Assembly (NCBI GenBank): GCA_963727625.1
Contig: CAVSHR010000002.1
Span: 608,001 to 672,000 of the forward strand
Reading direction: 5' to 3'
Length of the DNA stretch: 64,000 nucleotides
Source of the DNA: an uncultured delta proteobacterium
GTDB taxonomy: Bacteria > Desulfobacterota > Binatia > UBA9968
In this document: positions 1-4,670 of the stretch, one piece after another
Layout of the letters: every line of letters begins with the position of its first letter
Position numbering within the stretch: the stretch's first letter is position 1
The notes under the pieces: generated by a model
Databases searched by the model: none
What the model was told of the DNA's origin: nothing
What the model saw: only the letters and a program-made list of their open reading frames with translations
Position numbers and translations under genes: made by a program

Positions 1-147
1 GACAATCTCGCACTGCTCGCAATCAATGCAGACTTCCGGGTCGACGTAGAATTGCGGCGCTCCAGGCGTCGTGTGAATGCAAGCGACCGGACAAACCTCA
101 ACGCAGGCGCCGTCGTTGGTGCATAGGCTGGTGATGATGTAAGGCAC
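1..147 (-). CDS. Ferredoxin (7Fe/dicluster-type), 5' part, runs off window start
   Basis: Not in ORF track. Manual translation from GTG at 147: MPYIITSLCTNDGACVEVCPVACIHTTPGAPQFYVDPEVCIDCEQCEIV; CxxxCP and CxxCxxC motifs; GAGG SD upstream. Confidence 0.9.
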   Translation of the reverse strand, partial: MPYIITSLCTNDGACVEVCPVACIHTTPGAPQFYVDPEVCIDCEQCEIV

Positions 148-168
148 ATAAACCTCGCTTTGCTCGGA

Positions 169-272
169 ATTGCGGATCTCAAATCTCAGATACAAGCATT
201 ACAACGCGCTTCTGATATCCAAATTTCGCATCGCATAATTCGCTATGAATTTTGTAATTTGAGATTTGCAAT
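169..272. repeat. Intergenic inverted repeat built on a 7-bp-like unit (AAATCTC)
   Basis: attgcggatctcaaat (169-184) vs atttgagatttgcaat (257-272), 14/16 complementary. Confidence 0.6.
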
Positions 273-281
273 CCCGAAGGG

Positions 282-863
282 TCAGTCCGGCGCAAGCGGC
301 AAATCGGTGCGGATGACATTGGCCAGGTGAACCTTGGTGCCGAATCGCGGCGTTACGAGTCTTCCCTCGTTATTCAGCGTTCCGAGGCCGGCTCGAGCGG
401 CGAGCTTTTCTGCGTTGGGATCAGGCGCGGCGGTGGCGCGAAACCCCAGCTCCCGGATCCAGGCGCTCAAGATGAACGTAATGAACAGGCCGTTTTGCAC
501 CGGGACCTGGCCGCCGATGCCCGGCGATGTGCGCGGGTCATAGTCGGCGTGCACCGCACAGATGACCGCGAAGGGATAGACTTCACCTTCACCATTGTCC
601 TCGGCGCTCAGCCGGACGATGCCCAACAGTTCGGCGCCAAAATACTCGGCCATTCCTTTAACATGGCTCGACGTAATTTCAGGCGTGTGCAGCTCGGTTT
701 TCGTCGGGAAAACATTGCCTTCGGCCGCCTTGCGGATCATCTCGGTGACCGTATTGGCGGTATCCGCGGGCGGCCGGTTGATGAAAAAATCCCAGTAGGG
801 ATCGTCCTTGTGAGATTTCTTCCCGAGCCAGGGTAATTTGAGTGGACCAAGTCGCAAGGCCAC
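282..863 (-). CDS. Reductive dehalogenase-like cobalamin-binding domain protein lacking the Fe-S domain
   Basis: VKGMAEYFGAELLGIV, IRELGFRA, AGLGTLNNEG, PRFGTKVHL, RTDLPLAPD parallel the upstream RdhA; stops just before the Cys motifs; GTG overlaps upstream TAG (TAGTG). Confidence 0.75.
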   Translation of the reverse strand: MALRLGPLKLPWLGKKSHKDDPYWDFFINRPPADTANTVTEMIRKAAEGNVFPTKTELHTPEITSSHVKGMAEYFGAELLGIVRLSAEDNGEGEVYPFAVICAVHADYDPRTSPGIGGQVPVQNGLFITFILSAWIRELGFRATAAPDPNAEKLAARAGLGTLNNEGRLVTPRFGTKVHLANVIRTDLPLAPD

Positions 864-2179
864 TAGGCGTCTCGTTTTACGAATCGGTTGGTGTTTTCTT
901 TTAGCGGCGCGTAGAAGCCGACGTTCCCCGCAACGGCGCTGTTGGCGCTCTTCTCATGCGAGGCGTTACAGCCGGCCACGGTGCAGGCGTGCTCGCCGGG
1001 CTTGACGCCCGAATCATAGCCAAGCCAGCGCACGCGATTGTTGCGCACCACGCCCCAGTAACGGTCGTCGACCCACTTGAGAAAGCGGACCAGCGAGGGC
1101 CGTGTGAAAAAGGGGCAAGCATGAAGCAGCGACACCGTCATTGTATGCCACCACAGGTTCGGCTTGGTGAACGGGCAGACCGCCGCGCAGGTGAGGCAGC
1201 TGCCCCAGTGGTCGTGCACGTAGGGCCGGAGCTTGTAGCAGGTGAGCCAGTTAATCTTGTATTTTTCGATGCCGTTGTGGACGACTTTGTCGCCGAACGG
1301 GATGCTGTTGGTCGGGCAGGTGTTGGCGCACTTGCGGCAAATTTTGCAGAAGTCCTCGACGCCGATGTCCACCGGCTCGTCGGCCACCAGCGGTAAATCG
1401 GTCATGATCGGGTCCGGCATGTGCACGCGTGCGCCAAAATTCTTGTTGATGACAAGGCCGTTGCGGCCGAGCTCGCCGATGCCGCCGGCCACGCCCGCGG
1501 CTTGCGGCGTGACGACTCCTCGGAGCGCCGTGTAGCCGAGCTCCTTGATGTAGCCTTCGAGCGCCTTGAGCACCATCACGGCTTTCATTTGCGAAATGTG
1601 ATACGCGGCGTCGCCGATGTAGTGGCGGTGCGCCTGGAGCTTGTTGTAGTCCCACGCGGTGGTTGCTTGGATGATGTAGGGAAACTTGCGCGCCAGCTGT
1701 TCCGGCGAATTATCTTGGAATTCGTCTTTCGCCGTGCCGTCCTGAACGTAGCGGCCGCCGCCGGCGGCGTAAAGATAGGACGGATGCGCCTTGGCGACAC
1801 CGACAACGTCGGCACCCATGAAGAGGGCGACCGACTTGATATGTCGCGCCATTGCCGCCGGATCGTCCACCGCCACTCGCTGGGGATTGACTTTGCCGTT
1901 GCTCGACCGGTTGATCACGTTGGTGAGAAAGTGCCTGCGGTCGGCGAAGTGATTCGGCGCCGCAACCCGGGTCAACGGATCTTTGGAAACCGTATTGCGG
2001 TACCAGTTGAAGAGCGGCTTGCCGAGCTCGCCGCGGGCATTTTTCGGATGGGGCGACTGGTTCATATCGACATTGACATGGGGCCCGACGAGTCGCACCG
2101 AGCGTCCGAGATAGGGCGGTGAAAATTCACTGCCGCGGTTTTCGGGCTCCGGTTCTTGTAGAATCTCAGCTTTGGACAT
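863..2179 (-). CDS. Reductive dehalogenase family protein (cobalamin, 2x Fe-S), no Tat signal
   Basis: IKSVALFMGADVVGVA, GIGELGRNG, TDLPL, FCKICRKCANTCP, C-x10-CLTCAAVCP; QueG RYAxGxDYH motif absent. Confidence 0.85.
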   Translation of the reverse strand: MSKAEILQEPEPENRGSEFSPPYLGRSVRLVGPHVNVDMNQSPHPKNARGELGKPLFNWYRNTVSKDPLTRVAAPNHFADRRHFLTNVINRSSNGKVNPQRVAVDDPAAMARHIKSVALFMGADVVGVAKAHPSYLYAAGGGRYVQDGTAKDEFQDNSPEQLARKFPYIIQATTAWDYNKLQAHRHYIGDAAYHISQMKAVMVLKALEGYIKELGYTALRGVVTPQAAGVAGGIGELGRNGLVINKNFGARVHMPDPIMTDLPLVADEPVDIGVEDFCKICRKCANTCPTNSIPFGDKVVHNGIEKYKINWLTCYKLRPYVHDHWGSCLTCAAVCPFTKPNLWWHTMTVSLLHACPFFTRPSLVRFLKWVDDRYWGVVRNNRVRWLGYDSGVKPGEHACTVAGCNASHEKSANSAVAGNVGFYAPLKENTNRFVKRDA

Positions 2180-2208
2180 ATGACGCCCTCCGTTTGATTA
2201 AAAGGATC

Positions 2209-2290
2209 AGGGATGAAGGCGGTAGGAATAATTAGGGAATGGAAAGTGAAATCCCAGTCGCTTTATCCTTCATCCCTTTACCTTCATCCT
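2209..2290. repeat. Inverted repeat with CCTTCATC units, possible hairpin between glcG-like and rdhA-like genes
   Basis: agggatgaagg (2209-2219) / ccttcatccct (2267-2277); extra ccttcatcct at 2281-2290. Confidence 0.6.
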
Positions 2291-2685
2291 TGATAAGATG
2301 CCAGCGCCACCTCGGCGCATGTTTGGTCTTGATCGTCCGTGCCTCCGGCCACGGCAATCGCGCCGACGACATTGCCGCCTTCGACGATCGGTAGCGCGCC
2401 GCTGCCCGGCATAATCTTGCCGTTGCTCGAAACCACCAAACTTTGGAACCAGGTTTGCCCAGCCACGCCGGCCAACTCCTTGGTCGGCTGCTGGAAGCTA
2501 GCCGCGGTGTAAGCCTTGTTAAGAGCCATTTCTACGGTAATCGGCCGCGCCTTGTCCATCCGCCCGAGCGCGATCATGCGCCCGCTTTGATCGACGACCG
2601 CTGCGGTTACCGCGATGTCCAATTGCGCCGCCTGAGTGTGGGCGTTGCGCACCATTTGGATCGCCTTTTCTCCCGGGATTGCCAT
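2284..2685 (-). CDS. GlcG/HbpS family heme-binding protein
   Basis: AAVVDQSG, RMDKA, ALNKAYTAASF, GALPI, GAIAVAGGT..QD. Confidence 0.9.
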   Translation of the reverse strand: MAIPGEKAIQMVRNAHTQAAQLDIAVTAAVVDQSGRMIALGRMDKARPITVEMALNKAYTAASFQQPTKELAGVAGQTWFQSLVVSSNGKIMPGSGALPIVEGGNVVGAIAVAGGTDDQDQTCAEVALASYQG

Positions 2686-3087: not shown

Positions 3088-3978
3088 ATGATGGAAAGAA
3101 TCAGAGTCGCTTCATTACAGTATTTTATACGGCCCGTGCAAACCTTCGACCAGTTTCGCGATCAGGTGGACGCGTTGGTCGAAACCGCCGCGGATTATGA
3201 CTGCAATCTCTTGGTGTTTCCGGAATATTTCACGGTCCAGTTGTTGACTCTGGGCAACGTCAAACGGCCGATTCGCGAACAGATTCGAGATTTGGCGCGT
3301 CAGGGACCGCAGTTTCTCTCTTTGATGAGCGAACTCGCGCGACGACATCACCTCTACGTCGTGGCCGGCACGATTCCGGTTGCAGAGGCAGGTACGGACA
3401 AGATTTATAACCAGTCGTTTTTCTTTGGACCGAGCGGCGAATACGGCGTGCAGAGCAAGCTTCATATGACCCGTTTTGAAACCGAAGATTGGAGAGTTTC
3501 CGCCAGTTTCGGGTTTAAGGTTTTTGACACCGAGTTCGGCAAAGTCGCCGTGGCGATTTGCTACGATGTCGAATTTCCCGAGTTTGCCCGCGCTGCGGCG
3601 CGCGCGGGCGCTAACATTCTCGTCGTGCCCAGCTGCACCGATGAGCGACAAGGTTTCTTGCGGGTGCGCTACTGCGCCCAGGCCCGCGCCATCGAGAATC
3701 AGATGTACGTGATTACCTCGCACACGGTGGGTTCTCTCCCCATGGTGCCGGCGGTTTCGCTCAACTACGGGCAAGCAGCGATTTTGACGCCGAGCGATTT
3801 TTCTTTCTCACGCGACGGCATCTTGGCCGAGGGGAATCCCAATCAGGAGATGATGGTCATCGGCGAATTGAACCTTCAAACCATCGTCGACTCGCGAACA
3901 AGCGGCACGGTTTTACCGCTGCACGACAGCCGCAATACCCTGGACATTCTAGCCGCGATGGAAGTGGTTTCCCTGTGA
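3088..3978 (+). CDS. Carbon-nitrogen hydrolase (nitrilase superfamily)
   Basis: Catalytic triad in VFPEYF (E), QSKLHMT (K), ICYDVEFPE (C); ARAIENQ. Confidence 0.92.
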   Translation: MMERIRVASLQYFIRPVQTFDQFRDQVDALVETAADYDCNLLVFPEYFTVQLLTLGNVKRPIREQIRDLARQGPQFLSLMSELARRHHLYVVAGTIPVAEAGTDKIYNQSFFFGPSGEYGVQSKLHMTRFETEDWRVSASFGFKVFDTEFGKVAVAICYDVEFPEFARAAARAGANILVVPSCTDERQGFLRVRYCAQARAIENQMYVITSHTVGSLPMVPAVSLNYGQAAILTPSDFSFSRDGILAEGNPNQEMMVIGELNLQTIVDSRTSGTVLPLHDSRNTLDILAAMEVVSL

Positions 3979-4670
3979 GCCTGGCCAAATCCAAGATCAT
4001 CGTGCGCAATACGCGGCCGGAGGATTTCCCCGGTATCGCCGAGCTGAGCCGCCAGGTTTACGCGGACAGCCCACCTTGGAACGATGCCTTGCTATCGTCC
4101 CACCTGGAGGTGTTTCCCGAGGGCCAGTTCGTCGCGCTGGAAGTCGAGACCGGTCGGATCGTGGGAATGGCGGCCAGCTTGATCGTGCTTTGGGATGATT
4201 ACGACCTCGACATGGATTGGCTTGCGTTTACCAATAGCGGCTGGTTCACCAACCACGACCCCGAGCGCGGCCGCACGCTTTACGGCGCCGAGGTGATGGT
4301 GCAACCCAATATGCAGCGACGCGGCATCGGAAAAAAAATCTATCATGCGCGGCGCGAATTGGTGCGGCGGCTGGGCCTTTTGCGCATCCGCGCCGGTGCC
4401 CGATTGCGCGGTTACCATCGCTACGCCCATCGGATGTCCGCGGAGGAGTACGTCGCCCGCGTGGTTCAGCGCCGGATTTCCGATCCGACTTTGACCTTTC
4501 AGCTGCGCGAAGGCTTTGAAGTCATCGGCGTCGTCGCGAATTATTTGCACCAAGATCCAGAGAGCCGCGGCTACGCCGCCATCATCGAATGGCTAAATCT
4601 CGAAGTTGCCACGCCTGACGATTTTCGCGCGCGCAATCCGATTTACATTCGCAGCGCGCCGATTGCGTAA
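3975..4670 (+). CDS. GNAT family N-acetyltransferase, partner of the C-N hydrolase
   Basis: FPEGQF, LYGAEVMVQPNMQRRGIGKKIY acetyl-CoA motif, DPTLTFQL; GTGA overlap with upstream gene. Confidence 0.88.
   Translation: MSLAKSKIIVRNTRPEDFPGIAELSRQVYADSPPWNDALLSSHLEVFPEGQFVALEVETGRIVGMAASLIVLWDDYDLDMDWLAFTNSGWFTNHDPERGRTLYGAEVMVQPNMQRRGIGKKIYHARRELVRRLGLLRIRAGARLRGYHRYAHRMSAEEYVARVVQRRISDPTLTFQLREGFEVIGVVANYLHQDPESRGYAAIIEWLNLEVATPDDFRARNPIYIRSAPIA

Follow-up and report, generated by a model that had tools for sequence, protein, structure and literature searches.

A conserved gene module pairing an RdhA-like protein with a core-only paralogue and a ferredoxin-DUF336 fusion in uncultured Binatia

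The window analysed here is a stretch of 64,000 nucleotides from an uncultured delta proteobacterium of the Binatia (assembly GCA_963727625.1, contig CAVSHR010000002.1, positions 608,001 to 672,000 of the forward strand), and its first 2,685 positions carry a four-gene module that is kept together among uncultured soil and water bacteria. The module lies on the minus strand and is composed, in order, of a stand-alone DUF336 gene of the GlcG/HbpS-like type (2284..2685, 133 amino acids (aa)), a large RdhA-like gene (863..2179, 438 aa), a small core-only paralogue (282..863, 193 aa) and a gene for a 220-aa ferredoxin-DUF336 fusion. The latter starts at position 147, has its 5' part in 1..147 and runs 515 bases past the window edge, ending at G000:C2:607485 in the window's genome. 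The large and small genes overlap in a TAGTG stop/start junction (861..865, minus strand), with the small gene starting at its GTG. TAGTG or a shifted TAGTG was found in 10 of the 14 junctions examined, and the other four have TAAGTG, TAGGTG or a short gap. An earlier note on this DNA had described the TAGTG coupling and the order of the first three genes as they are given here; it had also proposed a ferredoxin dedicated to the module, which holds for the dedication, but the plain ferredoxin of that note is in fact fused to a second DUF336 domain.

The large protein has the cobamide-binding core fold and the two 4Fe-4S motifs of the RdhA superfamily, CxxCxxCxxxCP at residues 278-289 and CxxCxxxCP at 328-336 (the codons of C278, C281, C284, C288, C314, C328, C331 and C335 lie within 1175..1348, minus strand). 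No twin-arginine (Tat) RR pair occurs within its first 50 residues, its highest 19-residue hydropathy is 1.1, and no rdhB-like open reading frame (ORF) was found among the genes of the module when the ORFs of the window and the flanking stretch were checked; these results bear out the cytoplasmic RdhA-like enzyme with two Fe-S motifs, no Tat leader and no rdhB that had been proposed from the sequence. The reductive dehalogenase (RDase) model TIGR02486 matches it with 151.7 bits (E 4e-44), under the cut-off of 160.35, and the QueG model TIGR00276 with 57.5 bits against a cut-off of 200, on which the genome's own separate QueG scores 393.8 bits. The best structural match of its model (pLDDT 81.8) is NpRdhA (E 3e-19), with QueG at E 3e-8. 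In a quick tree of 57 sequences, 18 large proteins form one clade (support 100), which is sister (support 99) to a family of stand-alone proteins about 410 aa long and apart from the catabolic RDases and from QueG, the latter on a long separate branch. Judged by these comparisons, the large protein is RdhA-like and not QueG. The closest named records come mostly from Candidatus Binatia or unclassified deltaproteobacterial genomes. Two more short RdhA-like genes with long branches are found in the window's genome (G000:C2:388908-389573 and G000:C12:572899-573573, in open frames of 301 and 348 aa).

The active-site residues were mapped by profile alignment to 4RAS and 4UQU, not by superposed coordinates, and the roles of the NpRdhA residues follow PMC7565698. 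In this map Y426 of NpRdhA corresponds to Q197 of the large protein, K488 to H253, S422 to Y193, A419 to D190, M423 to H194, F291 to H44 and R552 to R318. Of the catalytic Tyr, Lys and Arg, to which the earlier note had drawn attention, the Arg alone is kept, and it is also the only retained member of the phenolate-binding set S422/K488/R552. Losing Y426 or K488 abolishes the activity of NpRdhA (PMC7565698, PMC5500849). Conservation was counted in 93 large sequences, non-redundant at 90% and drawn from 198, and in 33 small sequences. None of the 93 has Tyr in the Q197 column (Q 81, L 5, A 4, G 3) and 91 have His in the H253 column; the eight RDase references all have Tyr in the first and Lys/Arg in the second. 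D190, Y193, H184, R185, R318 and W325 are each present in 93 of 93, and these alignments indicate that the polar pocket is under selection, not decaying. Two further elements lie toward the C-terminus. The Cys-Cys-His segment HACTVAGCNASH (residues 397-408; 956..991, minus strand), already seen in the earlier note, is common to the stand-alone sister family and has a pLDDT below 50; it is not universal, since C399, C404 and H408 occur in 81, 82 and 78 of the 93 large proteins and the segment is missing in some distant clades. What is universal is the YxPLKENTxRF tail behind it (881..913, minus strand), conserved in at least 90 of 93 at each of six positions. The monomer model leaves this tail disordered, none of the 10 stand-alone sister proteins checked has it, and it is a candidate docking element.

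The small protein is 24% identical to its large neighbour and has no Fe-S domain and no Pfam match. It ends with TDLPLAPD, which aligns with residue D267 of this neighbour, 11 positions ahead of the first Fe-S cysteine and thus just in front of the Fe-S domain, as first described. The term "split second subunit" used at that time is not wholly apt, as there is no missing half elsewhere and the short gene encodes a complete conserved product. The model of the small protein (pLDDT 90.5) has a nitroreductase-like fold, with Z scores of 14.2 for NpRdhA, 12.4 and 12.2 for PceA and 11.5 for QueG, and lower ones for CblD (8.0) and CblC (6.8). The small-family profile matches both cores of NpRdhA; in the vestigial one it covers residues 58-220, the match ending at the same point where the small protein ends. 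This vestigial domain is described as binding no cobalamin and as mimicking the monomer-monomer interface of the PceA dimer (PMC10463259). The E-x-x-R motif (E236/R239), which we infer to contact the cobamide, is kept in 92 and 93 of the 93 large proteins and lost in the NpRdhA vestigial domain, and also in the small proteins, where the two columns have E in at most two and R in four of the 33. No His or Cys is invariant among these 33 sequences (H67 and C102 are each found in 21).

A more careful tree of the core domains (53 rows, 197 columns), for which a default cut at 250 residues was applied to three of the eight vestigial slices, places 15 small proteins as sister to nine large proteins (96/84). 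The eight catabolic vestigial domains fall together with the catalytic domains of the same proteins (100/99), and the fused N-terminal core duplicate of P0299 (603 aa) does likewise (99/94). Because of this placement and because a common origin with the catabolic vestigial domains is rejected (p-AU 2.8e-5), the phylogeny indicates that the small gene arose by duplication of its own neighbour, independently of the catabolic vestigial domain; its derivation as a split-off piece of a catabolic RDase was discarded on the same p-AU for grouping them. By these trees, the change from a homodimer to a catalytic plus inert pair appears to have happened at least three separate times on the RdhA fold, in the catabolic RDases, in P0299 and in the small/large family. 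Another protein, P0318 (685 aa), has two full RdhA-like units in tandem. The small gene has a dN/dS of 0.10-0.18 in six of six pairs (0.06-0.08 for the large gene), and members of its family, for which 1673 homologues were found, keep their length and end down to 30% identity. The small gene is under purifying selection and is not decaying.

In the fusion protein, a 7Fe-type ferredoxin is followed by the DUF336 domain. Its motifs, an incomplete CxxDxxCxxxCP and a CxxCxxCxxxCP, and its best matches in the Protein Data Bank (PDB), 1BC6 and 1BQX, put it closest to the 7Fe ferredoxins, the cluster type being predicted from the motifs; no ferredoxin-DUF336 fusion is among the PDB matches. PF03928 matches the fusion with 103 bits and the free copy with 98 bits (cut-off 25). 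DUF336 domains go with B12 handling in PduO and HbpS (PMC4923194), and the earlier note had drawn an analogy with the heme-binding members of this family. The analogy does not extend to the heme ligand of PduOC, His18 (PMC4923194), which is replaced at that column by Ile (Ile9) or Trp in the two DUF336 domains. The free copy keeps a His seven residues after this column in 36 of 37 sequences and the equivalent of PduOC Arg22 in 34 of 37. The Lys and Asp of the formaldehyde pocket of EfgA (PMC8153426) are kept in both domains (K57 in 33 of 37, D120 in 37 of 37). The idea that His16 had moved between the two DUF336 copies failed, with His in 18 of 32 fusions that have a free copy and in 12 of 36 that do not.

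In order to follow the module in other genomes, we used a close set of 30 loci from a scan of species-representative genomes and a distant set, the best 80 of 146 metagenome loci from a scan with distant small proteins (71 small genes and nine large-type matches). As the synteny check had to establish, the large gene lies directly upstream of the small gene in all 30 close loci, an adjacency that exceeds chance. The full fusion follows in 24 of these loci; four are cut by contig ends, and the two with other genes downstream, L016 and L018, carry the fusion elsewhere with 84% and 83% identity. Among the 71 distant small genes, 65 adjoin a large-type sequence, two have one within 3.2 kb and four are at contig ends. 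The fusion comes next in 45 of the 71; in 14 it is cut, and in 12 the sequence ends too soon. Decayed remnants of the large gene, with the start and the tail present and the middle lost, precede the small gene at L069:5600-5990, L072:146-346 and L078:1912-2109, those of L072 and L078 being counted within the 65; L069 has an intact large-gene copy 3 kb upstream, beyond MetE-like genes. Because the free DUF336 gene is found in 25 of 25 testable close loci and only in 7 of 25 testable distant ones, the core of the module is the three genes for the large, small and fusion proteins, and the free DUF336 gene is accessory.

Within the host family, 55 genomes at least 90% complete were sampled, and a large orthologue was required to have at least 75% identity. 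Both the large orthologue and the small gene are present, each in single copy, in one identical set of 38 genomes, and 37 of these also have the fusion; the exception, G161, has its small gene at a contig end. The other 17 genomes have none of the three. This co-occurrence is a pattern and not a statistic, as related genomes are not independent. In the window's genus the module is near-universal (19 of 20 genomes, counting the window's own). No further match came from 400 genomes sampled in the phylum to which G303 is assigned; the contig coordinates of G303 are those of G241, of the window's genus, so that counts by phylum are unreliable. The stand-alone sister family has the same Asp/Tyr/His pocket and the Cys-Cys-His segment (L032:4982-6211, L033, L034, L035 with two copies, L036, L037 and L038). 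A plain ferredoxin follows in six of the seven genome loci, no small gene adjoins, and the family can be multi-copy, with up to seven matches in one genome (G002). It is likely to be the homodimeric parent type.

The surroundings of the module vary. Any one flanking gene recurs in at most 10 of 31 close loci, and the 92 of 132 candidate ORFs from 23 distant loci that were compared with Pfam belong to scattered families only, such as MetE-like (four loci), alpha/beta hydrolase (four), luciferase-like (three) and CoA-transferase III (three). Neither B12 uptake genes nor adenosyltransferase genes recur there. A search for cobalamin riboswitches and other noncoding RNAs had no match at gathering score in 11 of 11 loci and one chance match near the window locus, and the promoter and terminator scans were at chance level. 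Elsewhere in the window's genome, a CobS-like gene is followed by two cobalamin riboswitches (G000:C6:297809-300794), seven proteins have a B12-binding domain, and CobN has no match, which together is consistent with cobamide salvage. Two AT-rich intergenic hairpins, one between the small and fusion genes (164..277, strand not assigned, 21-nt arms, z -3.4) and one on the other side of the large/small pair (2202-2289, 18-nt arms, z -1.7), are possibly repeat elements carried by this lineage. Upstream of the module, on the plus strand at 3088-4670, lies a divergent pair of a carbon-nitrogen hydrolase (nitrilase) and a GNAT acetyltransferase that does not recur in related loci. Downstream of the module in L001 (5473-13318) there are, as judged by eye, a subtilisin-like protease, a CsgG-like protein and a 738-aa protein.

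On balance, the module probably encodes one cytoplasmic cobamide/iron-sulfur reductase, with the 438-aa protein as catalytic subunit, the 193-aa protein as its cofactor-free partner and the fusion as electron donor. The large subunit would carry the cofactors and the rebuilt polar active site, and the small one would complete an obligatory dimer, occupying the position that belongs to the second monomer in PceA and to the fused vestigial domain in NpRdhA. Electrons would pass from the 7Fe-type ferredoxin through the two 4Fe-4S clusters to a base-off cobamide, generating Co(I), which would cleave the C-X bond of a small, polar and probably anionic substrate held by Arg185, Arg318 and the His residues. 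Tyr193 and His253 would replace the Tyr-Lys/Arg proton relay. The DUF336 domains may bind a small ligand (the substrate or an aldehyde product) or a tetrapyrrole, and may scaffold the ferredoxin.

Given this architecture, we regard two kinds of substrate as equally plausible, each somewhat short of an even chance: a polar organohalide such as a haloacid, and a compound with a non-halide leaving group at an epoxide, C-O, N-O or S-O bond. The cobamide itself as substrate is half as plausible as either of these, and halophenols and chloroethenes are unlikely. The substrate is probably unlike those on which known dehalogenases act. That the substrate may not be an organohalide had been anticipated in the earlier note, and fits the replacement of the catalytic Tyr and Lys. 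Since the genes are single-copy and of high identity while their neighbours shift, a housekeeping or detoxifying role is suggested rather than one in a xenobiotic pathway. More tentatively, and in our view doubtfully, the module could represent a widespread class of three-component cobamide enzymes with a housekeeping function, whose Co(I) reaction would act on a polar metabolite that carries no halogen and would be a third chemistry of the RdhA/QueG fold.

Several points weigh against the reductase proposed here. Sister proteins with the same Asp/Tyr/His pocket occur without the small gene in seven of the 55 family genomes, and therefore a pocket of this type does not in itself require the partner. 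A new substrate class is not demonstrated by the residue changes, because CfrA, a real dehalogenase, has the same pattern: its residue at the Tyr246 position is Cys, a Tyr stands four residues earlier in place of Thr242, and the enzyme nonetheless dechlorinates chloroform (PMC11921367). By this analogy dehalogenation by the large protein is possible, since CfrA lacks that Tyr too. The residue map itself comes from profile alignments, and the attachment of QueG is unsettled (p-AU 0.07 for joining it to the large and sister families). Neither an NAD(P)H reductase gene nor any conserved pathway gene adjoins the module in the close and distant loci, so that the electron source and the substrate are without contextual support. 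Cobamide binding, complex formation and activity are predictions from the sequence.

Among the alternatives to this reductase, the one that fares best, although improbable, is that the small protein acts as a CblD-like chaperone or maturation factor for the cobamide, loading or removing B12 while in no more than transient contact with the enzyme. It shares its fold with CblD and CblC, a CblC-CblD-B12 complex is present in the PDB (9MRS), and the B12 handling that accompanies DUF336 in PduO and HbpS (PMC4923194) would agree with such a function. However, the small protein matches RDases far better (Z 12-14 against 8.0 and 6.8), has no invariant His or Cys in 33 diverse sequences and has lost E-x-x-R as the non-binding NpRdhA domain has, and the translational coupling fits a 1:1 subunit. 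A heterodimer is favoured over a chaperone on the basis of the predicted domain boundaries and the E-x-x-R loss. Slightly less probable still is a module that processes cobamides, reducing, decyanating or dealkylating imported B12 for a salvaging bacterium with no outside substrate. The single copy, the near-universal presence in the genus among variable neighbours, a genome with CobS and no CobN match, the link of DUF336 to B12 and a His-rich pocket that could ligate cobalt all speak for it. Against these, no cobalamin riboswitch was found in 11 of 11 loci or beside the window locus, the flanks have no recurring gene for B12 uptake or for an adenosyltransferase, the cobamide is reported to be buried in RDases (PMC10624902), and the module is missing from 17 of the 55 family genomes.

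An ordinary catabolic haloaromatic dehalogenase with its vestigial domain split off has about one chance in ten in our estimation, a little below the cobamide-processing module: NpRdhA is the closest solved structure, the protein is cytoplasmic and the R552 equivalent is kept, but the rejected common origin, the separate clade, the replacement of two residues needed for NpRdhA activity and the change of the hydrophobic A419, M423 and F291 to Asp, His and His argue against it. A QueG-type epoxyqueuosine reductase is very improbable. The fold is common to QueG and RdhA, the TIGR00276 match is weak and the joining of QueG to the large and sister families is not formally rejected; the score nevertheless lies far under the cut-off that the genome's own QueG exceeds, the RDase model gives 151.7 bits, and the best tree separates QueG on its long branch. 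The clustering with QueG named beforehand as a possible refutation did not appear in that tree. The decay of the short gene, the other refutation named, was suggested by its lack of an Fe-S domain and of a Pfam match and can practically be dismissed, being refuted by dN/dS and by a presence pattern identical to that of the large gene, with constant length and end.

The cobamide/iron-sulfur reductase proposed here is of interest because most metagenome RdhA-like genes are without an assigned substrate, and this clade offers a soluble, delimited test case of three or four genes with an invariant unusual pocket. Among the best 120 homologues listed, approximately 53, counted by eye, are labelled "reductive dehalogenase" or similar, by similarity alone. 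If the tentative class acting on non-halogenated metabolites is real, such genes are now being counted as reductive dehalogenation potential in soil and sediment surveys. The repeated change of the RdhA fold from homodimer to catalytic plus inert pair takes the form of two genes in this family, and producing only the large protein would probably not give the active enzyme. The physical tie of DUF336 to a ferredoxin also provides a handle on a poorly understood family.

Comparison with known systems places the module between several groups. Like the catabolic RDases NpRdhA (PDB 4RAS, 6ZXU), BhbA and JtRdhA, it is cytoplasmic, without Tat or RdhB, with two 4Fe-4S motifs, the R552 equivalent and a core duplicate of the same boundaries, predicted to be cofactor-free, and ferredoxin genes are also reported near NpRdhA (PMC10463259). 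In contrast with them, the duplicate is a separate gene of independent origin and not a fused N-terminal domain, there is no PDOR reductase domain, the ferredoxin is fused to DUF336, Y426/K488/A419/S422/M423/F291 are Q/H/D/Y/H/H, and the module is a single-copy lineage-wide gene set outside any haloaromatic catabolic cluster. It resembles a catabolic RDase in layout and is not a member of that family. With the respiratory RDases PceA (4UQU, 8Q4H) and CfrA it shares the core, the Fe-S motifs and a homodimeric parent architecture, and in CfrA, too, the Tyr246 equivalent is missing and a Tyr replaces Thr242 (PMC11921367). Unlike them, the large protein has no Tat leader and no RdhB, has His for Arg305 and a polar instead of an aromatic pocket, and scores below the TIGR02486 cut-off. 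QueG (5D08, 5D6S) combines a cobamide with two 4Fe-4S clusters, as is predicted for the large protein, and is a precedent for a non-halide substrate on the RdhA fold, but the large protein is far under the cut-off of that family and a true QueG lies elsewhere in the genome. The DUF336 domains share PF03928 with PduOC, OrfY, HbpS, EfgA and NahX, keep the EfgA pocket Lys and Asp and, in the free copy, the PduOC Arg22 equivalent; they differ from PduOC at His18, the free copy keeping its His seven residues later.

The "simplified cytosolic" RdhA-like proteins of Desulfobacterota and Chloroflexota are similar in being cytoplasmic, of about 400 aa, without a vestigial domain and from overlapping phyla (PMC12219181). 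Table S7 of that paper has one Binatia protein of 419 aa with neither a Tat leader nor RdhB nor membrane helices, placed under "quinone-dependent respiratory". These proteins were compared by description only, and the description, in the parts of the paper available, mentions neither a partner encoded by its own gene nor a fusion to DUF336 nor an altered pocket (PMC12219181). No paper describing the arrangement was found in the open-access literature, which mostly leaves subscription journals outside and whose supplements may catalogue these genes. Overall, the module is real and conserved, and as a variant of the RdhA family it is apparently undescribed, its subunit make-up and its pocket both being new.

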